40,000 nucleotides of DNA. It comes from an uncultured Persicitalea sp. (GTDB taxonomy: Bacteria > Bacteroidota > Bacteroidia > Cytophagales > Spirosomataceae). Below the pieces are notes generated by a model that ran no database searches, was not told the origin of the DNA, and worked only from the letters and a program-made list of their open reading frames with translations. Made by a program: the position numbers and the translations under genes. The stretch's first letter is position 1; every line of letters starts with the position of its first letter. Shown in pieces: positions 3,456 to 40,000 of this stretch. The stretch spans positions 1-40,000 of the forward strand of contig CAZCOG010000001.1 of NCBI GenBank assembly GCA_964500445.1, written 5' to 3'.

Positions 3456-3490
3456 CCTTCATTCCTCGATTAAAAAAAAATACAAATAAT

Positions 3491-25174: not shown

Positions 25175-25179
25175 AGGCG

Positions 25180-25187
25180 TATTTTTG
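25180..25187 (+). promoter_or_regulatory. -7 box candidate (TATTTTTG) for tgt
   Basis: A TAnnTTTG match 24 nt upstream of the tgt ATG. There is no well-spaced -33 TTG. Confidence 0.3.
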
Positions 25188-25210
25188 CGGCCCGCTAAGC
25201 CGAATACTCT

Positions 25211-26344
25211 ATGAAATTTACGCTCGAAACCCAGGATACCCACACCAAAGCCCGCACCGGCCTGATCGAAACGGCCCATGGTTCAATCCAGACGCCGATA
25301 TTCATGCCTGTCGGCACGGCAGGAACAGTGAAGGCTGTTCACCAACGTGAGTTGCGCGATGATGTAAAGGCGCAGATTATTCTGGGGAATACTTACCACC
25401 TTTTCCTTCGACCTGGCCTCGATATAATCAAACAGGCAGGTGGCCTTCACCGCTTCAACGGCTGGGAAGGGCCAATTCTGACCGATAGCGGAGGGTACCA
25501 AGTATACTCACTGGCTGGGACGGGCAGAAAAATAAAAGAGCAAGGTGTGGAATTTCGTTCCCACATCGATGGCTCGCTCCACACTTTTACGCCCGAAGGT
25601 GTGGTTGATATTCAGCGGCAGATTGGGGCCGATATAATTATGGCATTCGACGAATGTACTCCTTACCCCTGCGAATACGAATACGCCCGCGCCTCAATGG
25701 AAATGACTCACCGCTGGCTAAAACGATGCTGCGACCGTTTCGATGATACGGAAGCACACTACGGCTACCCACAGACCCTTTTTCCGATTGTGCAAGGAAG
25801 TGTTTACAAGGACCTTAGAATAAAATCGGCCGAAACCATTGCTGCCGCTGGTCGGGAAGGAAATGCCATTGGCGGGCTATCGGTGGGCGAACCTGCCGAG
25901 ATTATGTACGAATTGGCAGAGGTAGTTTGCGATATTTTGCCCCGTGATAAACCCCGTTATTTAATGGGAGTCGGTACACCCGCCGATATTCTGGAAGGCA
26001 TCGCTGTGGGGGTAGATATGTTTGATTGCGTGATGCCCACCCGAAATGCACGTAATGGTATGCTTTTTACAACCGAAGGCATAATCAATATCAGAAATCT
26101 GAAATGGCAGGATGATTTTAGCCCAATTGATAAAAATTTGGGCGGATATGTCAGCAATTCCTATACGAAGGCTTACCTTCGCCACCTTATCCGGTCAAAC
26201 GAAATGCTGGGAGCTCAAATTGCCAGCATTCACAATCTGACTTTTTATTTGTGGCTGGTTGGCGAGGCCCGGCGCAGAATTATACAGGGAGATTTCGGTA
26301 CCTGGAAGATTGACACGATAAAAAAAGTAATGCAAAGGCTTTGA
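25211..26344 (+). CDS. tgt: Queuine tRNA-ribosyltransferase (tRNA-guanine transglycosylase)
   Basis: 377-aa ORF. Motifs include ARTGLIETAHGSIQTPIFMPVGT, LTDSGGYQV, IMAFDEC and GLSVGEP. Zn site CVMPTRNARNG...H. Confidence 0.96.
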   Translation: MKFTLETQDTHTKARTGLIETAHGSIQTPIFMPVGTAGTVKAVHQRELRDDVKAQIILGNTYHLFLRPGLDIIKQAGGLHRFNGWEGPILTDSGGYQVYSLAGTGRKIKEQGVEFRSHIDGSLHTFTPEGVVDIQRQIGADIIMAFDECTPYPCEYEYARASMEMTHRWLKRCCDRFDDTEAHYGYPQTLFPIVQGSVYKDLRIKSAETIAAAGREGNAIGGLSVGEPAEIMYELAEVVCDILPRDKPRYLMGVGTPADILEGIAVGVDMFDCVMPTRNARNGMLFTTEGIINIRNLKWQDDFSPIDKNLGGYVSNSYTKAYLRHLIRSNEMLGAQIASIHNLTFYLWLVGEARRRIIQGDFGTWKIDTIKKVMQRL

Positions 26345-26421
26345 ATATTTCAAATCACCTTTTTTTTTAGAAAAAAATTACAATACCCCGTATTTAATCC
26401 GATTTTAGGAAGCTTTGGCAG

Positions 26422-26452
26422 TTGGTTAACTCATTTAGTTACCATACTTTTG
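26422..26452 (+). promoter_or_regulatory. Bacteroidota-type promoter candidate for the OmpA-family gene
   Basis: TTG (26422-26424), 20-nt spacer, TACTTTTG (26445-26452). It lies ~90 nt upstream of the ATG. Confidence 0.3.
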
Positions 26453-26542
26453 TTGCCAACTGAAAGGAACGGATAAACGGACAAAGAGAGTAAAAAACGT
26501 AAGAAGAATCCTTGTTCATCAAATAACGCAATTTTTTATAGT

Positions 26543-28003
26543 ATGAAAAAAGTATCCCTGTTAATCGGTTCGCTCGTTTTGGGATCAATGCTGGCACTTC
26601 CGTCAAGCGCCCAGTATGTGCAGCAGACGCAGCCTAACTCGCCAGACTACAACCCCAAGGCTTCCTATGAGGGCCCTTATAAGCTGAATACATGGTCGAT
26701 TGGTGTTCACGTGGCTCCCACTCTGTTTTTTGGAGATTTACGGGAATACGATTTTTTCCCCGTGAGTGGAAATTCGAGCGATACCCATAGTGAGTGGGGT
26801 ACTTTCGAGGGAGGAATCCAGATCAACAAGCAGCTTTCTTATTTGTTTGGACTGAAAGGAGACGTTTCCGTTGGTAATCTTACGGGTATGAAACGCCGGA
26901 ATTATTTCCGTTATTTCAAGACCAATTATGTAGACGCCAGCATCTCTGGGACCGTTAACCTGAAAGGACTTCTGCTTGGCCCTACCAAAATGAAGCACTG
27001 GAAAATTGATGCTTACGCTGGTTTTGGCATGATGTGGTATAACGCCACGGCATATGACCTGACGGGTGGCGTCGAACTTCGTAACACGGGTGCCACCAAC
27101 GACTGGATGATTCCTGTTGGACTTGAAATTAACTACGAACTAACGAAGCGTCTGGATCTGGGGCTTGATTTCCGCCTGAACAATGTCAACTCCGATTTTG
27201 TGGATGCCACCTACGGCGGCGATTATTCACGTGATCCGAATGGCTTCAATTTCGAGACCTTGCCTACTGCGCGCAAAGGCAATTCCGCTCTGGACAAATA
27301 TGGTTATGGTGCCATTATGCTTACCTACAAGCTCGGCAAAAACCCTCTGCGCGTGAGCAAAGTAGATGGTAAGTACGTATACGATCCCGATCAGGGAGGA
27401 TTCTACCACCTGCGCTATACCGATCCACGTTTGTTGGTCAAGCCACCAAAAATCCTGACGATGGAAGAAATGGACTCTGTGGCCAAAGCCAACCGTCCTA
27501 AGGACATCGATCCACGTTTGCTGCTCGATACCGACGGTGATGGTGTGTCTGACTTCTTCGATAAAGAGCCTAATTCACCCGCTGGCAGCGTTGTTGATGG
27601 TAGCGGTCGCGTAATCGACTTCGACCAGTACGTGAAGAACGCTTTGGCTAATGGAGCAGCTTGTAACGAAATATTTGCCAACGTGATGTTCGATACCGAT
27701 AAAAACGAGATCAAGCCTGAATATCGCGAAATGCTTAACAATGTAGCCGCGCTGATGAATCGCTCGGGCTGTCGTCTGCAACTGGCCGGTCATGCTGACC
27801 GCCGCGCTTCGGACCGTTATAATATGGCTCTGTCTCGCCGTCGTGTAGATGCGGTCCGCGACTACCTCGTCAACGAAGGTGGTCTGAAAGATCAGAGCAA
27901 AGTAGTTGTAGATTACTTCGGTTCCTTTAAGCCTATCGCCGATGGAGCTACCACCGAGGGTCTGATGAAAAACCGCCGCGTGGAACTACGCCTAATGCCC
28001 TAA
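26543..28003 (+). CDS. OmpA-family outer-membrane protein with thrombospondin-type-3 repeat
   Basis: 486-aa ORF. Signal peptide (...LALPSSAQ), beta-barrel-like N-terminal half and TSP3 motif DTDGDGVSDFFDKEPNSP. C-terminal OmpA_C domain (FDTDKNEIKPEY...LAGHADRRASDRYNMALSRRRVDAVRDYL...NRRVELRL). Confidence 0.9.
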   Translation: MKKVSLLIGSLVLGSMLALPSSAQYVQQTQPNSPDYNPKASYEGPYKLNTWSIGVHVAPTLFFGDLREYDFFPVSGNSSDTHSEWGTFEGGIQINKQLSYLFGLKGDVSVGNLTGMKRRNYFRYFKTNYVDASISGTVNLKGLLLGPTKMKHWKIDAYAGFGMMWYNATAYDLTGGVELRNTGATNDWMIPVGLEINYELTKRLDLGLDFRLNNVNSDFVDATYGGDYSRDPNGFNFETLPTARKGNSALDKYGYGAIMLTYKLGKNPLRVSKVDGKYVYDPDQGGFYHLRYTDPRLLVKPPKILTMEEMDSVAKANRPKDIDPRLLLDTDGDGVSDFFDKEPNSPAGSVVDGSGRVIDFDQYVKNALANGAACNEIFANVMFDTDKNEIKPEYREMLNNVAALMNRSGCRLQLAGHADRRASDRYNMALSRRRVDAVRDYLVNEGGLKDQSKVVVDYFGSFKPIADGATTEGLMKNRRVELRLMP

Positions 28004-28043
28004 TAGCTCGGATCGTTTTCCGACTAAAATATACAGAAAGAGA

Positions 28044-28069
28044 AAGGCTTCCCTAGGGGAGCCTTTTTT
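28044..28069 (+). terminator. Rho-independent terminator after the OmpA-family gene
   Basis: AAGGCTTCCC-tag-GGGAGCCTT stem (~9 bp with one bulged T), followed by T6 (28064-28069). Confidence 0.75.
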
Positions 28070-28082
28070 CATAGTGATTCAT

Positions 28083-28090
28083 TAGCTTTG
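28083..28090 (+). promoter_or_regulatory. -7 box candidate (TAGCTTTG) for the glf operon
   Basis: A TAnnTTTG match 32 nt upstream of the glf ATG and just downstream of the OmpA terminator. There is no clear -33 element. Confidence 0.3.
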
Positions 28091-28121
28091 TGACTTACTG
28101 AAATAGAGTATATATCCATCA

Positions 28122-29231
28122 ATGAAGAAGTACGATTATCTAATTGTAGGTGCCGGCCCCTGGGGTAGTGTATTTGCGCACGAAGCTACCAAACGTGGAA
28201 AAAAGTGTTTGGTAATCGACCGCCGGACCCATACAGGAGGCAACACTTATTGCCAGGAAGTAGAAGGAATTAATGTCCACACGTATGGAGCGCACATCTT
28301 TCACACCAATGACAAGGCCATTTGGGACTACGTAAATTCTTTTGTAGAATTTAACCGCTATACCAATTCGCCGGTAGCTAACTACAAGGGTGAACTATAT
28401 AATCTGCCCTTTAATATGAACACGTTCTACCAGTTGTGGGGCGTGACTACGCCGGAAGAAGCAAAGGCCAAAATCGCCGAACAGGTAGCGGAGGCAGGAA
28501 TTACTGAACCGCAAAACCTGGAGGAGCAGGCTATCTCACTGGTTGGTACGGACATGTACCAAAAGCTTATCAAGGCCTACACCGAAAAGCAATGGGGCCG
28601 GAAGGCCACCGAGCTACCCGCTTTCATTATTAAGCGGCTACCCGTCCGATTTACTTTCGATAACAATTACTTCAACGACCGCTACCAGGGAATTCCCATT
28701 GGTGGCTATAACAAACTGACCGAAGGTTTGCTGGCGAGTGTAGAAGTAAGGTTGGGCGTCGATTTTACCGAAGAGCGCGAGGAATTGTCGCAACTGGCTG
28801 ATACTTTAGTATACACGGGCAAAATCGACGAATATTTCGGCTTCCGTTTCGGAGCGCTGGAATACCGCAGCCTCCGCTTCGACCACGAAACGCTGGATAC
28901 CGGTAATTTTCAGGGGAATGCCGTGGTCAACTACACTGACGCTGAGACACCCTTTACCCGCATCATCGAGCACAAGCATTTTGAGTTTGGTACTCAACCC
29001 AAAACCGTCGTAACCCGCGAGTACCCGCAGGAATGGAGTAAAGGAGCAGAGCCATACTACCCGATCAACGACTCAAAAAATGACACGCTCTATCGCCAGT
29101 ATAAAGCCCTGGCCGAAGCAGAAGAAAAAGTTATTTTTGGGGGGAGACTGGCTGAGTACCGCTACTATGATATGCATCAGGTGATCGGTTCGGCGTTGAA
29201 GAAAGTACGGGATCATTTCGGAGATCAATAA
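28122..29231 (+). CDS. glf: UDP-galactopyranose mutase
   Basis: 369-aa ORF, colinear with Glf as I recall it. Motifs: YDYLIVGAGPWGSVFAHE (FAD fold), GAHIFHTND, LEEQAISLVG, YTEKQWGR, FTFDNNYFNDRYQGIP, GALEYRSL and FGGRLAEYRYYDMHQVI. Confidence 0.95.
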   Translation: MKKYDYLIVGAGPWGSVFAHEATKRGKKCLVIDRRTHTGGNTYCQEVEGINVHTYGAHIFHTNDKAIWDYVNSFVEFNRYTNSPVANYKGELYNLPFNMNTFYQLWGVTTPEEAKAKIAEQVAEAGITEPQNLEEQAISLVGTDMYQKLIKAYTEKQWGRKATELPAFIIKRLPVRFTFDNNYFNDRYQGIPIGGYNKLTEGLLASVEVRLGVDFTEEREELSQLADTLVYTGKIDEYFGFRFGALEYRSLRFDHETLDTGNFQGNAVVNYTDAETPFTRIIEHKHFEFGTQPKTVVTREYPQEWSKGAEPYYPINDSKNDTLYRQYKALAEAEEKVIFGGRLAEYRYYDMHQVIGSALKKVRDHFGDQ

Positions 29232-29238
29232 AATTTGG

Positions 29239-30003
29239 ATGAAACTACGCTTCGTTATCTTGCCAGTGGTTGTGTGTATGCTGCTATTTGCTTCGTGTCG
29301 GAGCCAGCGGCCTGCTCCCGTGCTGAATACCGAAGCTTTGAATCCGGTAGTTTCGGCGGTTGATAAAGGAGTATATCGAATAAAAGCGGGCGACAAACTT
29401 CTAATCCGTAACCTTAACTGGTCATCAGAACTCTTTCCTGACCCCAGCCAGACGGCAATAGGTGGGGCGGGTGCGGGATACGAAGCCGTAGTACGGACCG
29501 ACGGAAGCATTAGTCTGCCGGAAATCGGCCTATTGCCCGTAGCAGGACAGACCCGGCAGACCGTAGCCGACACTCTTTCGACGTTGTACCGGGATTTGCG
29601 CAATCCACTGTTTGAAGTGGACATCACCAACCTGCGCGTAAAAGTACTGGGATCTGTCAATAACCAGGGTGTCGTTATTCTCGATAAAGACTACTTGACC
29701 CTGGGAGAAATTCTGGCCCGTTCGGGTGGAATCAAGTACACCGAAGCCAGCAATATCATTCAGGTCATCAGAAGTGAGGGGACGCAGCAGCAGGTCATTG
29801 AGTATGATTTTCAGGATTTGGGAAATCCGTTGATTATGAATCAAAATATATACGATAACGACATTGTGTACGTTCCGCCATCGCGCGGCTCCATCCGCAA
29901 CATTAAATATCAACGGGCGCTGGTACTTGCTCAGCCCGTCATTACAGCGCTCAACCTGACATTGATTGTAATAAATTTCATCAGACTAAGCCCCCGACCA
30001 TGA
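29239..30003 (+). CDS. Polysaccharide biosynthesis/export protein (short Wza-like OPX lipoprotein)
   Basis: 254-aa ORF. Lipobox (LLFASC). Poly_export-type motif (YRIKAGDKLLIRN; DGSISLPEIGLLPVAGQTRQTVADTL). SLBB-like segment (VKVLGSVNNQGVV). Too short to contain the C-terminal helical barrel domain of E. coli Wza. Confidence 0.85.
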   Translation: MKLRFVILPVVVCMLLFASCRSQRPAPVLNTEALNPVVSAVDKGVYRIKAGDKLLIRNLNWSSELFPDPSQTAIGGAGAGYEAVVRTDGSISLPEIGLLPVAGQTRQTVADTLSTLYRDLRNPLFEVDITNLRVKVLGSVNNQGVVILDKDYLTLGEILARSGGIKYTEASNIIQVIRSEGTQQQVIEYDFQDLGNPLIMNQNIYDNDIVYVPPSRGSIRNIKYQRALVLAQPVITALNLTLIVINFIRLSPRP

Positions 30004-30764
30004 TCTTGCCTACCCATCCCAAGAAGGCCAATATCGGTGAAGATGGGTCTTATCTGGAAAAAATAGGGACTGACTTGCATCTTCATGTATTGCCGGGGAT
30101 CGACGACGGTTCGCCTTCGGTAGAAGAAAGCCTGCAAATCCTGGCCGCGCACCATGCCGCCGGCATTCGTCGGATTATCGCCACTCCGCATATTCGTTCC
30201 GATTTTTTTCCTAATGACCAGGATACCATCCATGCGGCCTGGCAGCTTCTGACCGAAGCCGCCGCCGACCGCTGGCCCGATCTGACGCTCACGTACGCCG
30301 CCGAACATTTTGGCGACGATTACCTGATGACCTTGCTGGAAAAAGGTCAAATGTTGCCGCTATTCGACCATTATGTGCTGGTAGAAACCTCCATGCGTGC
30401 CGAAATGCCATACTTTCCCCAAATTTTGCAAGCCATGCTCGACCGTGGCTGGCGACCAGTATTGGCGCATCCTGAACGTTACCGTCCCTGGCAGCAGCAA
30501 CCTGATCGTTATGCTGAACTACGGGAAATGGGAGTAATATTCCAGGTCAACTTGCTATCGCTGGGCGGGCAGTATGGCCCTACCGAAAAACTACTTGCCC
30601 AACAAATGATCCGGCAGGGTTGGATCGGTGCCGTGGGGACGGATCTACATCGGGCCAGCCAGTATAGTTACCTGCAAAAGGCTGCCCGCACTCCCGAATT
30701 CGCAATGCTGTGCGATATGCCTCTACTGAACCATCTGGTACCTGAGCATGAGGCAAGAAACTGA
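30000..30764 (+). CDS. PHP-family (CpsB/YwqE-type) protein-tyrosine phosphatase
   Basis: 254-aa ORF whose ATG overlaps the upstream stop (ATGA). CpsB motifs: DLHLHVLPGIDDGS, IATPH, LAHPERY and GTDLH. Confidence 0.85.
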   Translation: MILPTHPKKANIGEDGSYLEKIGTDLHLHVLPGIDDGSPSVEESLQILAAHHAAGIRRIIATPHIRSDFFPNDQDTIHAAWQLLTEAAADRWPDLTLTYAAEHFGDDYLMTLLEKGQMLPLFDHYVLVETSMRAEMPYFPQILQAMLDRGWRPVLAHPERYRPWQQQPDRYAELREMGVIFQVNLLSLGGQYGPTEKLLAQQMIRQGWIGAVGTDLHRASQYSYLQKAARTPEFAMLCDMPLLNHLVPEHEARN

Positions 30765-33180
30765 TAGCGCATTCTTTGAGCAACTTCTGAACAACTCCGA
30801 ATCCATCGACTTCAAGAAACTCTTTCGGGTGTTCAGGAGCCGCTGGTGGTGGATTCTGATTGCGCTGTTGCTGGCGGGTGCGCTATGTTTCCTGTATCTC
30901 AAGTTCGTCACACCACAATACATCGGGACGGTTACGCTTAAGTACCTCGACAAACAGTCGGAATTCGATGGCCTGACCGGTTCGCAGCCTACGTTCATTT
31001 TCGGCACGAGTAGCCCGGACTATCTGACGGAGAAATTCAATGTTCGCTCGCCGGAAGTAGTACAAAGTACTTTGGAACGAATGGATAATCCCTTCACTTT
31101 CTATCGGGTGAAGGACCTGCGCCAAATTGATGTATACCCTGCCCGCCCACTCGAACTGGAAGTCCTCAGCTATGACCCGGCAAAGTATCGACACGGTACT
31201 TTCTTTTTGGATGAGGATTTGTCGCTTCGCTACCAAACCGAAGAATCAGTTACGCGTCCGCTGCAATTAGTACGAGGAGGCATAGTAACCCTGCCAGGAT
31301 TGGTTTTCAGAATCAGTGAAATTGTCACGGCTGCCGGTTATAAATTCGAGTTTACCTACAACGACCCAGCCCGGTTAGTGAATGCCTTTGTGTGGCGCAT
31401 CGACATGGAGGAGACCGAAGAGCAAATGCCCGTCATGGACCTCACCTTCCGCCATCATAATGCGGCCTATACCGAAAATTTTCTCGCCAATCTGGTAGAA
31501 GCGTATCGGGATTTCGACTTGCGGCAGAAGCAGAAATCATCCGATCTTACGATAGGTTTTATCAATAAGCAGGTCGATATATACTCGGGCTACCTCAAAG
31601 AATCGGCTCGCGAACTGGAACTCTTTAAACAAAAAAACCAACTACTTGACATAAGTACTTCCGCCCTGGAGATCACCTCGAAAGTGCGCGAACTGGAGCA
31701 GCGGAAGAACGAGTTGGAAATCCAGAGATCGTATATTGACATGCTGGAAGCCAACATGGGTCGCACTTTCGAAACCGTCAACTACCTTTCGGTAGGCCTG
31801 GATGGCTCCACCGATGGCGTGCTGGTAGGTTTGTTGCAAAGCTTTAACGATCTCATAACACAGCGCAAACAGTTGTTGCAAAAGTACAGTCCTAATTCAG
31901 CCGCGGTAAAGAATCTGGATGAGCAGCTGGTCAAGTACCGCAGTCAGATTCTGGACAATATCCGGCTCCAGAATCAAAAAAACGAACGCACGCTCAAAAT
32001 TCTGAATGATAACCTGGCCGCCCTCAAAGGGCGATTTAGCCGCATTCCGGCCCTGGAAAAAAACTTCATATACCTGCAAAGTGATTTTGAAGTAAACAAA
32101 AACATCTACTCGCTGCTCCTGAACAAGGAAATCGAATCTTCCATTGTGAAGGCGGGCATGCTTCCCTCTTTCACAGTAATCACACAACTGGACACCGACA
32201 AGGTTTCGCCCATTGCCTGGCGAATCATTTTGCTATTTATTTTCGCTGGTTTATTTCTGGGTATAGGCTCCGTGCTTCTGGCCCGATCGATCAATAGTAC
32301 TTTTACCGACATTGGGAAGGTGGCCCAGCATCCGCGTGTGAGTTTACTGGGGCTGGTCCATCACTTTTCAGAAAAAGTGACCAACACCCGCCAGGATTTG
32401 ACCAATTTCCTCCATGATCGCACCGTATTTACTGAATCGCTGAGCGCTCTCCGTACTCGATTGAGTTTTGCCAAATCTGCCCTGGAAGCCAGAGTGGATG
32501 ATGAAGGGCAGCTCATTCTGGTTACCTCTGAGCGGGGCGGCGAAGGGAAGTCGTTTGTGACGGTCAATCTGGCGCTATCTTTTACAAAAATTGGTAAAAG
32601 AGTCATTGTAGTTGGAGCTGACCTGCGCAAATCGAGAATCCATCTGTTTTTCGACGCAGAGCAACCCTACGGGCTGAGTGATTTTCTGCAGAACCCGGAG
32701 GAAATCGATCGGACGATTTATGCCTCGACGATTGAGAATCTCGATTACATTCCCGCTGGGTTTGCGCCCTTCAATCCGGCCGAACTCTTGCAAAAGTCCG
32801 CAATGCTAGACTTGTTGAACTACTGCCGGAAAAACTACGATTACGTGTTACTGGATACGGCTCCGGTTGGGCTGGTAGCCGATAACGTACCACTACTACG
32901 CCAGAGCGACTATGTGATATTCATCATCCGCTGGTTGTTTTCAAACCAGGAGTCATACCACCTGGCCGGGCAACTGGCCGACGAGTATGATTTAAATGAA
33001 GTCAAAGTAGTAATTAACGATTTCTATCCCGATAACCTGCACAGTAGTCTGACCTCTGGCAGCAGCTATTACGGTTCCGGTAGCTACCAATATGGTTATA
33101 CTTACCGCAATAATGGGTACTTACCGGATTCGCGTACGGGTTGGCGGAAGAGCTTGAGAAACGTTTTCAGTAGAAAATAG
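30748..33180 (+). CDS. Polysaccharide co-polymerase / bacterial tyrosine autokinase (Wzc/GumC-like, PCP2a-type fusion)
   Basis: 810-aa ORF overlapping the phosphatase gene by 17 nt. Two TM helices flank a long coiled-coil periplasmic region. Walker A GGEGKSF, A' VVGADLRKS and Walker B DYVLLDTAP. C-terminal Tyr cluster SSYYGSGSYQYGYTYRNNGY (nt ~33061-33120). Confidence 0.9.
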   Translation: MRQETDSAFFEQLLNNSESIDFKKLFRVFRSRWWWILIALLLAGALCFLYLKFVTPQYIGTVTLKYLDKQSEFDGLTGSQPTFIFGTSSPDYLTEKFNVRSPEVVQSTLERMDNPFTFYRVKDLRQIDVYPARPLELEVLSYDPAKYRHGTFFLDEDLSLRYQTEESVTRPLQLVRGGIVTLPGLVFRISEIVTAAGYKFEFTYNDPARLVNAFVWRIDMEETEEQMPVMDLTFRHHNAAYTENFLANLVEAYRDFDLRQKQKSSDLTIGFINKQVDIYSGYLKESARELELFKQKNQLLDISTSALEITSKVRELEQRKNELEIQRSYIDMLEANMGRTFETVNYLSVGLDGSTDGVLVGLLQSFNDLITQRKQLLQKYSPNSAAVKNLDEQLVKYRSQILDNIRLQNQKNERTLKILNDNLAALKGRFSRIPALEKNFIYLQSDFEVNKNIYSLLLNKEIESSIVKAGMLPSFTVITQLDTDKVSPIAWRIILLFIFAGLFLGIGSVLLARSINSTFTDIGKVAQHPRVSLLGLVHHFSEKVTNTRQDLTNFLHDRTVFTESLSALRTRLSFAKSALEARVDDEGQLILVTSERGGEGKSFVTVNLALSFTKIGKRVIVVGADLRKSRIHLFFDAEQPYGLSDFLQNPEEIDRTIYASTIENLDYIPAGFAPFNPAELLQKSAMLDLLNYCRKNYDYVLLDTAPVGLVADNVPLLRQSDYVIFIIRWLFSNQESYHLAGQLADEYDLNEVKVVINDFYPDNLHSSLTSGSSYYGSGSYQYGYTYRNNGYLPDSRTGWRKSLRNVFSRK

Positions 33181-33198
33181 AGGAACCATTCGCTTTTT

Positions 33199-34071
33199 AT
33201 GAGTACCTACCAACGCCCCAGAGTTATATCGGAAATAGGCTGCAACCACATGGGACAGTTCGAGATTGCCAAAGAACTCATTCGGCTGTCGAAAGATTGT
33301 GGGGCAGAGTACGCCAAATTTCAGAAACGCAATTCCCGCGAACTCCTCACGCCCGATCAGTACAATGCCCCCCACCCCATCCCTTACAACGCTTATGGCG
33401 CGACCTACGGCGCTCACCGCGAGTACCTGGAATTTGACCAAACGCAACACGCAGCATTGAAGGAGTACGCCGAGTCGGTAGGCATTGGCTATGCCACCTC
33501 AGTGTGGGATGTAACATCCGCGCTGGAAATCATTGAATTACAGCCCGATTTTATCAAAGTACCATCGGCCTGCAACAACAATTACGAAATGCTGCGCCTG
33601 CTGCGCGACGATTATCGAGGTGATGTCCACGTATCGACGGGCATGACTACACAGGACGAAATCGTCCGGCTCGTAAAGTACTTTGAAGAAACCGACCAGG
33701 CCCGGCAGCGGCTCGTGATGTATAGCTGTACGTCGGGGTACCCGGTACCCTTCCGGGATATCTGCTTACTGGAAATCAGGCGAATTCAGGAAAACTACGG
33801 AGAGCGGATCAAGGAAATCGGCTTCTCGGGTCATCATCTGGGCATTGCGGTAGATGTGGCGGCTTATACGCTGGGAGCTGTATGGGTAGAGCGGCATTTT
33901 ACCAAGGATCGTACCTGGCGAGGTACCGACCACGCCGCTTCGCTGGAAGTACCGGGACTGCAAAAACTGGTGCGCGACCTGGAACATACTTATGAAGCAC
34001 TTACTTATAAACCCAGAGAAATCCTGGAAATTGAGGAAGTGCAAAGAGAAAAACTGAAATATCGGAAATAG
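33199..34071 (+). CDS. NeuB-family (N-acetylneuraminate-synthase-like) aldolase-type TIM-barrel enzyme lacking the SAF domain
   Basis: 290-aa ORF. NeuB-domain motifs in order: VISEIGCNHMG, AEYAKFQKR, IKVPSAC, HVSTGM, YSCTSGYP, GFSGHH, VERHFT and DHAASL. The protein ends where the linker and SAF/antifreeze-like domain of canonical NeuB would begin. Confidence 0.8.
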   Translation: MSTYQRPRVISEIGCNHMGQFEIAKELIRLSKDCGAEYAKFQKRNSRELLTPDQYNAPHPIPYNAYGATYGAHREYLEFDQTQHAALKEYAESVGIGYATSVWDVTSALEIIELQPDFIKVPSACNNNYEMLRLLRDDYRGDVHVSTGMTTQDEIVRLVKYFEETDQARQRLVMYSCTSGYPVPFRDICLLEIRRIQENYGERIKEIGFSGHHLGIAVDVAAYTLGAVWVERHFTKDRTWRGTDHAASLEVPGLQKLVRDLEHTYEALTYKPREILEIEEVQREKLKYRK

Positions 34072-34084
34072 AATTTATTCAAAA

Positions 34085-34711
34085 TTGACTCAGACAAAAC
34101 CATTTATTGTAGGCATAACGGGCGGAAGTGCCTCGGGGAAGACTTTCTTCATGAAGAGTCTGCTGGCTTCCTTTGGGGACAAAGAAATTTGCCGCATCTC
34201 GCAGGATAATTACTACCTGCCCATTCAACAAATCCCCAAAGACCGGAACGGAGTGGAGAATTTCGATCTGCCCGAAACGATCGACCACGCACTATTTGCG
34301 GAGCATATTGCCCAACTACGGCAGGGAAATGTAGTGCAGCACCTGGAATATACCTTCAATAATCCGTTGATTACGCCCAAACTGCTGACTTTTCAGCCGA
34401 CGCCAATCATTGTGGTTGAAGGAATTTTTGTCTTTTACTTCCCCGAAGTAGCCGATTTGATCGACTTGAAAGTATTTGTCGACGCCAAAGAACATGTCAA
34501 GATCAAGCGGCGCATCATTCGCGACAACAGCGAGCGTGGCTACGATCTGGAAGATGTCCTTTATCGCTGGGAAAACCACGTAGCTCCTACTTACGACAAG
34601 TACATCAAGCCCTTACGCGCCGAAGCGGATATTATTATCAATAATCACGATCAGTTTGATCGTGGCTTAGACGTAGTAGTAGCGTATTTAAAAACGAAAG
34701 TACGCTCTTAG
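34085..34711 (+). CDS. udk: Uridine kinase
   Basis: 208-aa ORF with a TTG start; there is no ATG upstream of the P-loop. Motifs: IVGITGGSASGKT, ISQDNYY, NFDLPETID, IIVVEGIF, R(R)IIRD..ERG. Confidence 0.88.
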   Translation: MTQTKPFIVGITGGSASGKTFFMKSLLASFGDKEICRISQDNYYLPIQQIPKDRNGVENFDLPETIDHALFAEHIAQLRQGNVVQHLEYTFNNPLITPKLLTFQPTPIIVVEGIFVFYFPEVADLIDLKVFVDAKEHVKIKRRIIRDNSERGYDLEDVLYRWENHVAPTYDKYIKPLRAEADIIINNHDQFDRGLDVVVAYLKTKVRS

Positions 34712-34793
34712 TTCAAAGGAGATAAAGGTACTTTAATTCTGATTCGCTGGTAGTTCTGTGCATTTCCGATTTGATCACATTGGAAAAAGACAA

Positions 34794-35462
34794 CTAGGAG
34801 CGAAGTTCTTTCACAAATCCCAAACATTCCGCAATTTTCCGCTCTACCCAGTCATAATCCTGCTGAGCAAGTACATCCTTGGGAAACAGGTGAGATCCCA
34901 TTCCTACACAGTAAGCACCCGCGCCAAACCACTCGGCGAAGCTTTCGCGGGTAGGCTTTACACCACCCGTCACCATGATTTTCAGATCAGCCATCGGACC
35001 GCGTACGGCTTTCAGAAAGCCCGAACCAAGTACCTCGCCGGGAAATAGCTTCACCACTTCGGCGCCAGCCTGGCGGGCGTTGTAGATTTCGGTAACCGTC
35101 ATCACCCCTGGCAGCCAGGGTACTTCGGCGGCGGCACAGGCCGTCCCCACGGCGGGATTCAGGGCGGGCGTCACCACAAAATCAGCCCCAGCGTAAATGA
35201 ACTTATTCGCCGACTCGTCATCATAAATAGTACCGATCCCCATCGCCATTTCGGGCAAATGTTCGTGCGCGTAGGCAACGAGTTGCTCAAAAGTGGCCAG
35301 CGCATTGCCTCCCCGGTTGGTGAACTCAAACACCCGCAGCCCCGCCCGATAGGAAGCCTTAAGTACCTCAATGGCCACAGAGGCATCATCGTGGTAAAAT
35401 AATGGCAAAACGCCACCTGTATACAGGGAATTGAGAACAGTGTCTTTATCTATGTGAGCCAT
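34794..35462 (-). CDS. eda: KDPG / 4-hydroxy-2-oxoglutarate aldolase
   Basis: 222-aa ORF. Motifs: FEFTNRG, IGTGT-like GIGTIYD, GADFVVTPA, LPGVMTVTE, VKLFPG and MVTGGV. Confidence 0.9.
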   Translation of the reverse strand: MAHIDKDTVLNSLYTGGVLPLFYHDDASVAIEVLKASYRAGLRVFEFTNRGGNALATFEQLVAYAHEHLPEMAMGIGTIYDDESANKFIYAGADFVVTPALNPAVGTACAAAEVPWLPGVMTVTEIYNARQAGAEVVKLFPGEVLGSGFLKAVRGPMADLKIMVTGGVKPTRESFAEWFGAGAYCVGMGSHLFPKDVLAQQDYDWVERKIAECLGFVKELRS

Positions 35463-35576
35463 TTAGTTGATGGATAGTTGATAATGGATGAGTGGCATTT
35501 ATTAATATAATGAGAGGAATTTATCAGGAAAAAGCAGCTATTATGAGTAACGGATAAACTACCCTTAGTCCGCCTA

Positions 35577-36572
35577 TTATCGCTTAATTCGCCCCGACGT
35601 CTCGCCCTGCCGGATGGCTTCCACCTCGGCTTCGGTGCTAACGAGTGCGTCTCCTTCGATGGTGTGTTTCAGGGCCGAGGCCGCCACACCGAATTCCAGG
35701 GCTTTCTGCTCGTCGTCGAATTTCAAAAGGCCGTGAATGAGTCCGGCGATGAAGGCGTCACCTCCGCCCACGCGATCCACAATGGGATTGATTTCAACGT
35801 CGGCAGTTTCTAGCATCCTTTCGCCATTCCAGAGAAAAGCTTTCAGCAAATTGTGGCTGGCACTGAGGGAAGTACGTTGCGTGTCCACCACGCGGCTTAC
35901 CTGCGGGAAGGCTTTTTGTAATTTCACGCAGGCATCCAGAAAATCGGTACATTCGATGCCAAATATTTCTTTAACATTGATATGATTGGCAATCACTATA
36001 TCCGTTCCGGCGGTGAGTTCAGGTAGTACATCACCGGGCGTCTTACCGTATTTCCAAAGGTTGGAACGGTAAAAGATATCGCCCGAAACGGTAATCCCCT
36101 TTTTGCGAGCTGCCTGAATCCCCTGCAGACAGGCATCGGCAGCCTCCTGCGAAAGTGCCGGGGTGATGCCCGCCCAGTGAAACCAGGTGGCGTCCTTCAG
36201 AATTTCGTTCCAGTCGTACGACTGCGGGTCGGCCGTAGCGAAGGATGAACCCGCCCGGTCGTACACGATTTGGCTACCGCGCAGGGCCGCGCCCGTTTCA
36301 AGGTAATAAACTGCCATGCGGGGGCCGCCGAACTGAATGTGCGAAATGTCTACACCATGAAACCGAAGGTACTGCGCTGCCGCCCGGCCCACGGGCGAGT
36401 CGGGAAAGTGAGTAACGTGCGCCGTACTGTGCCCCCAGTAAGCCAGGGCGGAAGCTACGTTGGCTTCGCCGCCAGCATAGGTAACATCGAAAGATCGGGC
36501 TTGCTCAAAACGAGAAAAACCGGGAGTACTAAGGCGCAGTAACACTTCGCCGATGGTAACTATTTGGGCCAT
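35577..36572 (-). CDS. kdgK: 2-dehydro-3-deoxygluconokinase (PfkB family)
   Basis: Start placed at ATG 36572 (MAQIVTIGEVLLRLS); the longest ORF begins 4 codons earlier at a TTG (36584). Colinear with Bacteroidota-type KdgK as I recall it: YAGGEANVA, IVYDRAGSSF, WFHWAGITPAL, and the PfkB signature GGGDAFIAGLIHGL. Confidence 0.85.
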   Translation of the reverse strand: MAQIVTIGEVLLRLSTPGFSRFEQARSFDVTYAGGEANVASALAYWGHSTAHVTHFPDSPVGRAAAQYLRFHGVDISHIQFGGPRMAVYYLETGAALRGSQIVYDRAGSSFATADPQSYDWNEILKDATWFHWAGITPALSQEAADACLQGIQAARKKGITVSGDIFYRSNLWKYGKTPGDVLPELTAGTDIVIANHINVKEIFGIECTDFLDACVKLQKAFPQVSRVVDTQRTSLSASHNLLKAFLWNGERMLETADVEINPIVDRVGGGDAFIAGLIHGLLKFDDEQKALEFGVAASALKHTIEGDALVSTEAEVEAIRQGETSGRIKR

Positions 36573-36772
36573 ACAGGAGGACAATCGGCGATCAGTGGGA
36601 AGCTGAAGACCTTTTCTACGGATAAAAAACTAATTGATTTTTTGAAAAACAAAGGTATGGATTTTCGTAAAGTAAGGAAATCCGACCCTCGCTTTGGCGG
36701 GAACAGACTTTATTTATTAAAATAATCAGTAATTTTATCCTCCAAATCTGAAAAAGACATCCATTAATCAAT

Positions 36773-37630
36773 ATGAAAACTGACACCCAAAATCCGCTGC
36801 CGAGTCTTGATGTCTGGGAAGAGGACGTCCTGACTCGCTACCCTGAGCCTTTTGAAAAAGCCAAGGAAGATTATCGCAACTACGACGAGCCGGGCCGCGA
36901 TACGGTTCGGGAGTTTTATCGGCTGAACCACACCTACCAGACGTACGACTTCGTACTTGAAAAAGAAAAGGAGTACCTCAAATTTGATAAAAAGGAAATG
37001 CCGGTTTGGGAAGCTTTCGACTTCCTGAACACGCTCGTGGACGACTCGGACCCCGATACCGATCTCGACCAGTGGCAACATCTGCTTCAAACTTCGGAAG
37101 CCATCCGTGCCGACGGCCATCCCGACTGGTTTGTGCTGGTAGGGCTGATGCACGACATGGGGAAGGTACTTTGCCTGTTTGGTGAGCCGCAATGGGCCGT
37201 CGTAGGGGATACTTTTCCCGTAGGCTGCGCCCATTCCGACAAGATTGTTTACCCAGAATATTTTGCCGCCAATCCGGATACGTACGATGAGCGCTACAAC
37301 ACCAAGTACGGTGTGTACGAGCCCAATTGCGGCCTGAACAACGTCCACATGTCGTGGGGGCACGACGAATACGTCTATCAAATGACGAAGCACGGCATGC
37401 CCGAAGAAGGGCAGTACATGCTGCGTTACCATTCCTTCTACGCCCAGCACCGCGAGCATGCCTACGACCATCTGCTCGACGACCACGACCGGGCGATGTT
37501 CGAATGGGTAAAGAAATTCAATCCTTACGACTTGTATTCCAAAGTACCTACCCCACCCGACTGGAAAAAACTCCGACCCTATTACGAGGATCTGGTGGCA
37601 AAGTACCTGCCCGGTTCACTGAAATTCTAG
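36773..37630 (+). CDS. myo-Inositol oxygenase (MIOX, HD-domain diiron oxygenase, PF05153-type)
   Basis: 285-aa ORF. Motifs: [70 protein letters not shown] and KYLPG..KF. These are in the same order and spacing as the animal enzyme as I remember it. Confidence 0.9.
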
Positions 37631-37654
37631 ATTCCGGCATTTTCATTATTTTGG

Positions 37655-37711
37655 GGCCGCTATTCATGGTAGAGATGATTTTCGATCTCAGCCAGAATAG
37701 CGGTCTTTTTT
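37655..37711 (+). terminator. Terminator-like stem-loop between the MIOX and symporter genes
   Basis: GGCCGCTATTC (37655-37665) pairs with GAATAGCGGTC (37695-37705), giving 11 bp with one G-U. The 29-nt loop contains an inner GAGAT/ATCTC stem. T6 follows at 37706-37711. The symporter ATG is only 19 nt further on. Confidence 0.45.
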
Positions 37712-37729
37712 GCTTCCGACTCGTACTTC

Positions 37730-39115
37730 ATGCTCGCAATTTGCATTCTTGGTTATCTGGCCCTTAACCTGGGTATTGGGCTTTGGGCGTCACGTCGAGT
37801 TTCCACCACTCAGGATTTTGTGTTGGCAGGCCGCAACTTACCACTTCTGTTGGCAGCATCGGCTACCTTCGCCACTTGGTTCGGTTCCGAAACCATCATG
37901 GGTGCTCCTGCTGAATTTATTCAGCATGGCGTGCTGGGCGTCATTGAGGATCCCTTCGGAGCAGCGCTGTGCCTGTTCTTGGTAGGTGTATTTTTTGCCC
38001 GTCGCCTTTACGAAATGAACATTGTTACTTTCTGCGACTACTTCCGTATTCGCTACGGTCGGCGGGCAGAACTGTTGTCGGCGATTCTTATCATTCCCTC
38101 GTATTTCAGTTGGATTGCCGCACAATTGATGGCGATGGGCATCGTGCTGAAAATCGTATTGGGCTGGTCGCTGACGGAGTGCATCCTGCTGAGTTCGGTG
38201 GTTGTGATTCTCTACACGGTTTGGGGTGGCATGTGGTCGATTTCTATTACTGATTTTCTGCAAACGATTCTAATCATTCTTGGACTAAGCATCGTAGCCA
38301 TAATCCTTTACCAAAAAACGGGTGGAATGGCTGCTATCACTCAAAAACTACCTGAAGACTTCTTCCGTTTTTATCCTGAATTCACCTTTAAAAGCTCGGT
38401 GGAATACTTTGCTGCCTGGATTACCATCGGGCTGGGATCTATCCCGCAACAAGATGTTTTCCAGCGCGTCATGTCGGCCCGCTCGGCCCAGACGGCGGTG
38501 CGGGCTACGTTGATCTCCTCTTTCATGTACCTGAGTGTGGCCTTTATTCCGCTTTTTATTGCCCTCTGCGGCCACCTGCTCTATCCCGAACTCGAGCAGC
38601 AGGATGGGCAGATGATTATCCCTCAAATGATGCTATTGCACATGAGCCTGCCGCTGCAAGTCATGTTTTTCGGCGCTTTGGTTTCGGCTATTCTCAGCAC
38701 TACAAGTAGTGCCGTCATGGCCCCGGCGGCTGTACTAGGCGAAAACATCGTCAAATTCTTTCGCCCCGATATTACTGATCGACAGCTCCTACTCGTCATT
38801 CGGATAAGCATTGTATTAATCACGGCTGTCTGCATCTTTATGGCGACCACCCGTGAAAGCATTTTCGAACTCGTGGCCGAGTCCTCCGCGTTCAGTCTGG
38901 TATCGCTATTCATTCCGTTGGCCGTCGGTATCTACTGGCAGCGGGCCAACACAGTAGGCTGTTTGCTTTCGATGATAGCGGGGCTGGTTGCCTGGCTTTT
39001 CTGTATTTGGCTGGAAACTGAATACCCGCCATTAATCTATGGTTTGCTGGCTAGTACAGTAGGGATGCTGATCGGAGTCTTTTTATATGGCAAGCTTAAA
39101 CTCCAAAACGTATGA
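37730..39115 (+). CDS. Sodium:solute symporter (SSS/SLC5) family transporter, substrate unknown
   Basis: 461-aa, ~12-TM hydrophobic ORF. SSS N-terminal pattern GIGLWASRRVSTTQDFVLAGRNLP...ATWFGSETIMGAPAEF. Its stop overlaps the next gene's start (ATGA). Confidence 0.85.
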   Translation: MLAICILGYLALNLGIGLWASRRVSTTQDFVLAGRNLPLLLAASATFATWFGSETIMGAPAEFIQHGVLGVIEDPFGAALCLFLVGVFFARRLYEMNIVTFCDYFRIRYGRRAELLSAILIIPSYFSWIAAQLMAMGIVLKIVLGWSLTECILLSSVVVILYTVWGGMWSISITDFLQTILIILGLSIVAIILYQKTGGMAAITQKLPEDFFRFYPEFTFKSSVEYFAAWITIGLGSIPQQDVFQRVMSARSAQTAVRATLISSFMYLSVAFIPLFIALCGHLLYPELEQQDGQMIIPQMMLLHMSLPLQVMFFGALVSAILSTTSSAVMAPAAVLGENIVKFFRPDITDRQLLLVIRISIVLITAVCIFMATTRESIFELVAESSAFSLVSLFIPLAVGIYWQRANTVGCLLSMIAGLVAWLFCIWLETEYPPLIYGLLASTVGMLIGVFLYGKLKLQNV

Positions 39116-39957
39116 AAATCAAACTACTCTGTTTATTACTGCTCGGTAACGCGGCCTGTTTCGCCCAAACATCGCCCGCGCGCCTCATCATCCGCGGCGA
39201 CGACATGGGCTTTTCGCACTCCGGCAATCTGGCTCTGGTTGAAGCATACAAAAACGGTATCGAGACTTCCATTGAGGTCATCGTTCCCTCGCCATGGTTT
39301 CCCGAGGCGGTGCAGCTGCTCAAAGAAATCCCTACGGCGGATGTGGGCATCCATCTGGCTTTGACCAGCGAATGGGATTTGGTAAAATGGCGGCCCTTGA
39401 CGGCGGCAACAAGTTTGGTGAATGCGGATGGTTATTTTTATTCAATGGTTTTTCCGAACAAAAACTACCCCGGCCAGTCCATTTCCGAAAACAAATGGAA
39501 AATAGAAGACGTGGAGCGGGAATTCCGGGCACAAATCGAGATGGCTCTGCGGCACATTCCGCGCATCAGCCATGTGTCGGCGCACATGGGCTGCACGAGT
39601 TTGTCGAAGGAAGTGGCGGCGATGACTAAGCGGCTGGCACAAGAGTATAAAATTGACCTTGACCCGGACGACTACGCGGTGCAACGGCTACCGATGGAAG
39701 GGCTGCGGAACACGCCGGCGGAAAAAGCGCAGAGTTTCACAAACGCACTTGACAAAATGCAACCCGGCAAAACCTACCTCTTTGTGGAGCATCCCGGCCT
39801 GGACAACGCCGAACTACGCGCCATTCACCACATCGGCTACGAGAATGTGGCCGAAGATCGGCAAGGCGTGACGAATCTCTTTACTGATCCGAAAGTAAAG
39901 GCGCTGATTGAAAAAAAAGGTATTCAGCTGATTGCGTACCGGGATTTGGAAAAATAA
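39112..39957 (+). CDS. ChbG/HpnK (YdjC)-family carbohydrate deacetylase with Sec signal peptide
   Basis: 281-aa ORF. N-terminus MKIKLLCLLLLGNAACFAQ looks like a cleavable signal. YdjC-type motifs follow: LIIRGDDMGFSHSGN, GIHLALTSEW and SHVSAHMG. Confidence 0.8.
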   Translation: MKIKLLCLLLLGNAACFAQTSPARLIIRGDDMGFSHSGNLALVEAYKNGIETSIEVIVPSPWFPEAVQLLKEIPTADVGIHLALTSEWDLVKWRPLTAATSLVNADGYFYSMVFPNKNYPGQSISENKWKIEDVEREFRAQIEMALRHIPRISHVSAHMGCTSLSKEVAAMTKRLAQEYKIDLDPDDYAVQRLPMEGLRNTPAEKAQSFTNALDKMQPGKTYLFVEHPGLDNAELRAIHHIGYENVAEDRQGVTNLFTDPKVKALIEKKGIQLIAYRDLEK

Positions 39958-40000
39958 CCCTGATCACGCCCCCTCCCTAATTGCCAGTGCCAGCCGAATC

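Follow-up and report, generated by a model that had tools for sequence, protein, structure and literature searches.

Positions 34794-39957 of a 40,000-nt stretch of DNA from an uncultured Persicitalea sp. (assembly GCA_964500445.1, contig CAZCOG010000001.1, positions 1 to 40,000; this whole stretch is here called the window) carry two divergent groups of genes: kdgK and eda on the reverse strand, and the genes for a myo-inositol oxygenase homologue (MIOX), a sodium:solute symporter (SSS, this member being here named SSS461) and a YdjC-family deacetylase homologue on the forward strand. An earlier note on this DNA had regarded them as a candidate locus for the oxygenase-initiated catabolism of an inositol-type substrate. 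Comparative analysis led us to favor, with moderate confidence, a different explanation, in which the region is not one dedicated pathway locus but a mosaic, made up of three units that evolve independently of each other. The first unit is the MIOX-SSS461 pair, the second is kdgK-eda and the third is the YdjC gene. A MIOX gene together with a sodium symporter was the only recurrent core of the locus.

The observations in the earlier note were confirmed, while its interpretation was partly supported. The five open reading frames (ORFs) lie at the positions and on the strands that it had given, and its family assignments agreed with Pfam and NCBIfam equivalog models and with comparisons to solved structures from the Protein Data Bank (PDB). 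The spacer between the divergent kdgK and MIOX genes, described as ~200 bp, is 200 bp long (36573-36772), and the stop codon of SSS461 does overlap the ATG of the YdjC gene by 4 bp (ATGA). Within the two groups, eda and kdgK are separated by 114 bp, and MIOX and SSS461 by 99 nt. Persicitalea jodogahamensis is closely related to the organism, with 98% amino acid identity in MIOX and ~83-87% nucleotide identity across the locus. Searches for hexuronate and iol genes in the organism itself covered the 40-kb window, and the sister evidence comes from P. jodogahamensis.

The MIOX gene and its neighbors across Bacteroidota

The MIOX gene (36773-37630, forward strand) encodes a 285-aa HD-domain diiron protein whose residues make it all but certain that this is a genuine myo-inositol oxygenase. 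The PF05153 match reached 351.7 bits, against a cut-off of 25, and covered model positions 2-249 of 249. The alignment with mouse MIOX (2HUO) runs end to end, over residues 16-284, with 282 bits and an E value of 5e-83. The diiron ligands of the mouse enzyme, reported by Brown et al. 2006 to be H98, H123, D124, H194, H220 and D253, are all six identical in the window protein (H103, H127, D128, H197, H220 and D253). The catalytic lysine (mouse K127, window K131) is kept as well, and so are all the mouse residues that contact inositol (R29, Y44, D85, D88, D142, S221 and K257). An orthologue from the same phylum turns myo-inositol into glucuronate in vivo: the MIOX of Flavobacterium johnsoniae, expressed with Udh in Escherichia coli, gave glucarate from myo-inositol at titres near those of the mouse enzyme (PMC4551912). 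Its identity to the window protein is 54% or higher, which is only a lower bound, since the compared sequence was taken from a supplement damaged by optical character recognition and contains frame errors. The substrates of the window enzyme probably also include D-chiro-inositol.

The neighborhood of MIOX was surveyed in species-representative genomes, which contained 565 confirmed MIOX stretches. The locus counts given below refer to the best 80 of them (72-98% amino acid identity), in each of which ORFs were called over as much as 10 kb of either flank, for comparison with the window proteins and with each other. All 80 belong to Bacteroidota (Cytophagales, Chitinophagales, Saprospiraceae and Sphingobacteriales). 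An SSS symporter of any type was present at 56/80 loci, and at 48 it was immediately adjacent, that is, within 600 nt of MIOX on the same strand. The commoner type, found at 45 loci, is a vSGLT-like protein of ~540 aa. The SSS461 type (at least 50% identity) was found at 22 loci, all from Spirosomataceae and always downstream of MIOX, and at 11 of the 80 loci an SGLT-like gene upstream of MIOX was combined with an SSS461 gene downstream. Other recurrent neighbors were LacI regulators (13/80), SusC (11/80), SusD (6/80) and oxidoreductases of the Gfo/Idh/MocA family (5-7 of 80). The pairing with a symporter is not universal, as MIOX was solitary in several full-length loci.

The remaining genes of the window locus were rarely found near MIOX. 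KdgK was found at four of the 80 loci (L002, L003, L004 and L066), all of them Persicitalea-level relatives with MIOX identities of at least 94%, Eda at three, YdjC at one (L002), UxaC at one, and UxuA and UxuB at none. Conservation of this neighborhood across Cytophagales and other Bacteroidota had been proposed as a check on the single-locus idea, and these counts instead describe a lineage-specific synteny; among the 80 loci the five genes did not form a conserved cluster beyond the immediate species group. It is also informative that kdgK is absent 5' of MIOX in a Persicitalea metagenome-assembled genome (MAG; L006, MIOX 92% identical) and in Arundinibacter (L007, 91%), indicating that the kdgK/MIOX junction arose within the genus.

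Beside the window MIOX there is no SusC/SusD pair of the kind that defines a polysaccharide utilization locus (PUL), the pair in the window being located ~30 kb away (117-5191), and no LacI gene adjoins it. Examples of the usual partners elsewhere in Bacteroidota, namely the vSGLT-like symporter, LacI and SusC/SusD, are found at L078:10887-12515, L080:10979-15729 and L013:10983-12011. The LacI proteins adjacent to MIOX are 35-39% identical to the LacI of hexuronate clusters. Some MIOX loci (L020:11712-14455, L022:13857-15017 and L053:12865-13602) contain Gfo/Idh/MocA proteins, some with a TAT signal, together with ThuA-like and possible sugar-phosphate-isomerase-like proteins, a set that recalls inositol dehydrogenase and inosose isomerase functions. 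An ORF antisense to MIOX (36764-37486, reverse strand, 240 aa) recurs in 54/80 loci and was rejected as a gene, because its recurrence follows from the very high conservation of MIOX itself (72-98% amino acid identity across orders).

These partners also bear on what MIOX is for. A non-catabolic function, in which glucuronate would be supplied to the envelope or to an exopolysaccharide (EPS), as in plants, or in which inositol levels would be controlled, seems very improbable to us. In its favor, plant MIOX feeds UDP-glucuronate pools, and EPS export and biosynthesis genes (Wza-like, CpsB, Wzc, NeuB-like, UDP-galactopyranose mutase and GT2) adjoin the locus at 23960-34071. However, outside the Persicitalea subclade MIOX is not flanked by this cluster, and no glucuronokinase or UDP-sugar pyrophosphorylase gene was found in the window. 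What MIOX generally has beside it is a symporter for uptake, in some loci together with SusC/SusD and LacI, and such a set of partners is a sign of catabolism; a cluster of this symporter/Sus/LacI type matters for plant colonization (PMC13440311).

Displacement of kdgK-eda from a hexuronate operon

The kdgK and eda genes encode the last two steps of hexuronate degradation. The product of eda (34794-35462, reverse strand) is a KDPG/KHG aldolase of 222 aa, with 118.1 bits to PF01081 and 284.7 bits to the NF005499 equivalog model, above its cut-off of 275. The product of kdgK (35577-36572, reverse strand) is a 2-dehydro-3-deoxygluconokinase of 331 aa, with 93.1 bits to the PfkB model. The highest-scoring solved structure was that of the KDG kinase 2AFB (237 bits), and the protein scored 88 bits with the IolC model, against a cut-off of 300. 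The start of kdgK was set at the ATG at 36572, since the orthologues in L002, L003 and L066 open with MAQIVT; the first listed start is a TTG at 36584.

Orthologues of KdgK (53-91% identity) are found in hexuronate clusters of Salmonirosea, Dyadobacter, Telluribacter and Fibrisoma, with the order (LacI)-sigma-uxuA-uxaC-(MFS)-kdgK-eda in the four genera. In these relatives eda is always located directly 3' of kdgK, and in Dyadobacter, Telluribacter and Fibrisoma uxuB is a few kb from eda. In P. jodogahamensis a glucuronate isomerase (WP_229580221.1) was found with the Salmonirosea UxaC as probe. The corresponding region (L090, BMXF01000001.1:632586-652034) contains genes for ABC-F, DUF349, LacI and sigma proteins followed by uxuA and uxaC, the part from LacI to uxaC being at ~640-643 kb. 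On the same contig kdgK-eda is located at ~687-688.6 kb, on the same strand as uxuA-uxaC, while MIOX-SSS-YdjC occupies 683.4-686.6 kb on the opposite strand. The hexuronate operon of P. jodogahamensis is thus split by ~44 kb, with MIOX at the breakpoint.

The intact operon of the relatives and the ~44-kb split together indicate that the adjacency of kdgK-eda and MIOX results from a recent rearrangement within the genus, and that kdgK-eda is the displaced tail of an ordinary hexuronate operon. The earlier note had emphasized that the first and the last two steps of an oxygenase-dependent route stand side by side. This juxtaposition is biochemically coherent, but it is a historical accident and not a conserved design, and the five genes do not make up a functional locus. 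The note had also described the middle steps as absent, which is true of the 40-kb window, where no uxaC, uxuA or uxuB gene is present, but not of the sister genome, since P. jodogahamensis has both uxuA and uxaC. As the note had stated, the window contains no iol gene (iolG/E/D/B/C/J).

Sequence conservation in the kdgK-MIOX spacer agrees with this history. A candidate promoter block for kdgK (36650-36680, reverse strand), which ends in TACCTTTG, is near-invariant in the window, L002 and L003 and more divergent in L066, and the rest of the spacer is poorly conserved. Read on the kdgK strand, TACCTTTG fits the Bacteroidota -7 consensus TAnnTTTG. The same block is found in the uxaC-kdgK spacer of the intact Salmonirosea operon, indicating that the promoter of kdgK moved along with the gene when the region was rearranged. 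On the MIOX side, the -7-like sequence GTAATTTTAT (36729-36738, forward strand), 35 nt 5' of the MIOX start, is invariant in a four-sequence alignment and can be considered a candidate MIOX promoter element. Among the intergenic regions scanned only the kdgK block recurs, and only 5' of kdgK. An inverted repeat of the window, GGATTT-N13-AAATCC, was discarded as a regulatory site since it is not conserved in relatives. No Rfam match was obtained for 34000-40000, and a scan for sigma-70 promoters and terminators gave counts at or below shuffle expectation, with no intergenic terminator.

The symporter SSS461 and the gene that follows it

The protein encoded downstream of MIOX (SSS461; 37730-39115, forward strand, 461 aa) matches PF00474 (SSF) with 161.5 bits, falls in the CHT1/PutP/PanF-like branch of the family and scores below every NCBIfam equivalog cut-off. 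Among solved structures it scored highest with two choline transporters, 9RWS (137 bits) and 8J74 (115 bits). It reaches 66 bits with vSGLT, whereas the commoner symporter partner of MIOX reaches 474 bits, so that SSS461 does not group with the SGLT/SMIT type. In an alignment with human CHT1, W62 and W141 are kept, and Y91, W254 and W406 are replaced by Ala, Gln and Val, respectively. Both solved choline transporters have Trp at the positions of W254 and W406, which belong to the choline cage of CHT1. The two Trp replacements hint that SSS461 may not be a choline carrier, which is only a lead.

The resemblance to CHT1 raises the question of whether the oxygenase acts on inositol. The MIOX homologue could, by analogy with PhnZ and TmpB, cleave a non-inositol substrate delivered by a choline-transporter-like SSS, such as a hydroxylated onium compound, and the HD-domain diiron oxygenases have indeed diversified in substrate. 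We consider this highly implausible: the full set of inositol-binding residues of the mouse enzyme is kept, the similarity to animal MIOX (282 bits) extends over the full length, an orthologue from Bacteroidota is active on inositol (PMC4551912), and in SSS461 Gln and Val replace the two Trp that the solved choline transporters share.

The association of SSS461 with MIOX was examined reciprocally in 80 metagenomic loci (L091-L170) collected from relatives of SSS461, 67 of which were evaluable. MIOX was located directly upstream in eight of the 67; it was so placed in 7/24 loci at 55-70% SSS461 identity and in 0/24 below 55%. The close relatives without MIOX had no conserved metabolic partner in these metagenomic loci. 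Most relatives of SSS461 therefore lack MIOX, indicating that the MIOX-SSS461 coupling is lineage-restricted and making the role of SSS461 as inositol carrier uncertain. Where the coupling exists it is close, with a spacing of 10-123 nt in most loci, and it is found in two separate Spirosomataceae subclades with SSS461 proteins 60-91% identical to that of the window. In the clade of Persicitalea, Arundinibacter and Telluribacter, SSS461 is the sole transporter at the MIOX locus.

It is therefore possible, though we judge it unlikely, that MIOX and SSS461 share no substrate and are held together by inherited synteny, SSS461 carrying an unrelated solute and inositol arriving through another carrier or from an internal source such as inositol lipid turnover. 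The SSS461 relatives at 73-79% identity stand alone, and MIOX is lacking in 18 of 19 loci. The 11 loci with an SGLT-like gene 5' and an SSS461 gene 3' of MIOX suggest that the SGLT-like protein is the inositol carrier, and several full-length loci with a solitary MIOX also speak for a lack of shared substrate. On the other hand, the tight same-strand spacing has been kept in both Spirosomataceae subclades, no other transporter is encoded at the locus in the Persicitalea/Arundinibacter/Telluribacter clade, and the Gln and Val at the W254 and W406 positions set SSS461 apart from the solved choline transporters. SSS461 would be the most likely candidate for inositol uptake, and this is the weakest step of the model that we favor.

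The last gene of the forward group (39112-39957, forward strand) encodes a YdjC-family carbohydrate deacetylase homologue of 281 aa (PF04794, 158.3 bits) that is predicted to be exported. The Sec signal peptide recognized in the earlier note is well founded: the N-terminus, MKIKLLCLLLLGNAACFA|QT, has the layout of a charged region, a hydrophobic region and a small-x-small motif, the orthologues have equivalent leaders ending in A-x-A|Q, and the catalytic domain begins where leaderless homologues begin. With the ChbG equivalog model the protein scored 72.8 against a cut-off of 227, and no chb genes are nearby, so it cannot be assigned to ChbG. The closest solved relative is 8JQE (E 6.5e-29), for the identity of which a literature search found nothing. 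The orthogroup (P0001-P0120, 63-90% identity) is common among Cytophagales and Chitinophagales of soil. It is marked by the signal peptide and an invariant RGDDMG, and all its members carry an H-x-S-[SAG]-H-M motif, where the three aligned solved homologues have H-I-D-S-H. The orthogroup looks like a distinct periplasmic subfamily.

The position after SSS461 was scored in 30 evaluable MIOX-SSS461 loci. A YdjC gene occupies it in only one (L002, where a convergent RecQ gene follows), the window being the second case besides these 30. Three loci (L003, L004 and L066) have instead a gene for an outer membrane protein (OMP) beta-barrel, and two (L006 and L007) a gene for a TAT-signal alpha/beta-hydrolase, which is present at a larger distance in L010. 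In 18 of the 30 there is a convergent NUDIX gene and nothing co-directional, indicating that the MIOX-SSS461 unit ends after the symporter. The hydrolases (L006:11728-13044, L010:13245-14549 and L007:12400-13713, from a Persicitalea MAG, Telluribacter and Arundinibacter, respectively) have weak matches to DLH, AXE1 and S9; that of L007 appears to be split over two ORFs, possibly by a frameshift. No YdjC gene was present at any of the 80 metagenomic SSS461 loci. In Salmonirosea, Arundinibacter, Adhaeribacter and Dyadobacter the YdjC orthologues are solitary, with no MIOX or SSS gene nearby and with unrelated neighbors (GH30/PAP2, GH3, IS1 and HAD). The YdjC gene is best seen as a recent lineage-specific insertion that probably rides on the MIOX-SSS transcript.

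The exported deacetylase had been taken as a hint that the true substrate is an acetylated or N-acetylhexosamine-linked cyclitol or uronate. With the orthologues solitary in four genera and the position after SSS461 highly variable, this hint is left without comparative support. In its full form the idea calls for a dedicated, co-evolved locus in which YdjC would remove acetyl groups from the substrate in the periplasm, the SSS protein would import it, MIOX would open it, and KdgK and Eda would finish its degradation; we give it only a slight chance. The ATGA overlap that couples YdjC to the symporter and the signal peptide of YdjC are in agreement with it, as is the finding that SSS461 is no ordinary carrier of the sugar type. 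It is opposed by the rarity of YdjC after the symporter (1/80 genome loci and 0/80 metagenomic loci), by the solitary orthologues, by the OMP beta-barrel gene in the same position in three close relatives and the lack of any co-directional gene in 18/30 loci. In addition, the kdgK-eda adjacency arose by rearrangement within the genus, and the residues for binding unsubstituted myo-inositol are intact in the window MIOX. Some small probability is retained because an exported de-acylase recurs in this position, as the TAT-signal hydrolase of three sister lineages (L006, L007 and L010). In this variant, which appears equally improbable, such enzymes would have been recruited repeatedly behind MIOX-SSS461, and, in what would be an undescribed route, an acylated or otherwise substituted cyclitol derived from plants or microbes would be trimmed by them in the periplasm, imported by SSS461 as a choline-transporter-like protein of new specificity in which the two Trp are replaced, and opened by MIOX.

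Proposed route and comparison with known systems

In the mosaic explanation that we favor, myo-inositol would be imported, possibly by SSS461, and cleaved with O2 by the cytoplasmic MIOX to D-glucuronate. Glucuronate would be converted to 2-keto-3-deoxygluconate via UxaC, UxuB and UxuA, encoded elsewhere in the genome, and KdgK and Eda, expressed from their own promoter, would yield pyruvate and glyceraldehyde-3-phosphate. The rearrangement would have parted uxuA-uxaC from kdgK-eda and left the latter head-to-head with MIOX. The YdjC protein, as the third unit, would probably have as its substrate an N-acetylated glycan of the periplasm that has no relation to inositol. The activity of MIOX in this organism, the substrate of SSS461, the co-transcription and the flux through the hexuronate route are inferred.

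Several results weigh against this explanation. SSS461 belongs to the choline transporter/PutP/PanF branch and not to the SGLT/SMIT sugar branch, the vSGLT-like symporter of 45/80 MIOX loci is absent from the window locus, and among the relatives of SSS461 at 73-85% identity MIOX was upstream in one of 19 metagenomic loci. The uxuB gene was not found in the Persicitalea-clade sequences searched (the window, L002 and L090), which do not cover a whole genome. No operator common to kdgK, MIOX and uxuA emerged when the intergenic regions were searched for motifs and scanned for palindromes. Finally, the 4-bp overlap between the SSS461 and YdjC genes implies that the two are co-expressed, something that a pure passenger model would not need.

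Elsewhere the window has genes of unrelated function, namely SusC/SusD, GH5, LptD, amidase, carboxyltransferase, tgt, OmpA-family, EPS export, NeuB-like and udk genes. The NeuB-family protein (33199-34071, 290 aa) is short, scores well under the NeuB and PseI equivalog cut-offs and adjoins the uridine kinase gene (34085-34711). This NeuB-like/uridine kinase flank closes the Wza/CpsB/Wzc cluster and is kept only in the Persicitalea subclade. A homologue of the 2-oxoadipate dioxygenase/decarboxylase HGLS (PF07063; 11571-12485) is encoded by a lone gene, which is flanked by the LptD-family gene and by a GH5 gene that has Big_7 repeats.

Catabolism of inositol initiated by MIOX is textbook knowledge for animals, plants and fungi. 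The earlier note had considered this route physiologically uncharacterized in bacteria, and in agreement with it no physiological study of a bacterial MIOX was found in the literature searched. A GapMind and fitness-based reconstruction treats only variants of the Iol route, including IolC-DUF2090, and does not cover MIOX (PMC9007349). A 2026 RB-TnSeq study of the plant-associated Bacteroidota strain YX-36 described a cluster, PUL39, composed of a Na+/sugar symporter, SusD, SusC, an inositol oxygenase family protein and LacI, which was mildly important for plant colonization; its authors stated that the substrates are unknown and that close homologues are uncharacterized (PMC13440311). If a soil or rhizosphere member of Bacteroidota does use the proposed route, MIOX combined with the ordinary hexuronate route would be a second, O2-dependent inositol pathway of bacteria to be included in metabolic reconstructions, and it would explain inositol use in genomes without iol genes. 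The juxtapositions that distinguish the window are recent rearrangements and add little to this; what counts more is how widely MIOX occurs in Bacteroidota, together with the odd transporter. As a whole the locus is largely ordinary, a known enzyme and a known pathway logic in a bacterial setting.

Compared with known systems, the window protein has in common with animal MIOX (2HUO/3BXD, EC 1.13.99.1) the family over its full length, the iron ligands, the lysine and the inositol-contacting residues. It differs in being encoded in a bacterial operon with a symporter, and it is known here from its sequence. The Iol pathway (iolG/E/D/B/C/J of Bacillus subtilis) serves the same purpose, the use of myo-inositol as a carbon source, but by dehydrogenase and dehydratase chemistry, in contrast to the O2-dependent ring cleavage of the route proposed for the window. 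As in PUL39, MIOX is clustered with a sodium symporter, and the LacI-MIOX-SusC-SusD architecture was found in 6-13 of the 80 loci; unlike PUL39, the window locus has neither SusC/SusD nor LacI beside MIOX, and its symporter is of another subfamily.

The window kdgK and eda are orthologous to the last two genes of the LacI-sigma-uxuA-uxaC-(MFS)-kdgK-eda cluster, which is how the hexuronate isomerase (UxaC-UxuB-UxuA-KdgK-Eda) operon occurs in Spirosomataceae, and keep its internal promoter, although in the window lineage the operon is broken and MIOX lies upstream of kdgK on the opposite strand. SSS461 has the SSS fold in common with CHT1 (SLC5A7), which is the closest in sequence, yet at only 115-137 bits, and SGLT/SMIT is the branch of the commoner MIOX partner and not of SSS461. 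The YdjC protein shares the fold family, the N-terminal Asp-Asp and the His of the GxHLxLT motif with the ChbG/YdjC deacetylases (E. coli ChbG; 8JQE, 2I5I, 2E67 and 7VI8), and it differs in its signal peptide, which marks it as exported, in a His motif altered relative to the three aligned solved homologues, in its score far under the ChbG equivalog cut-off and in lacking a chb-type context.

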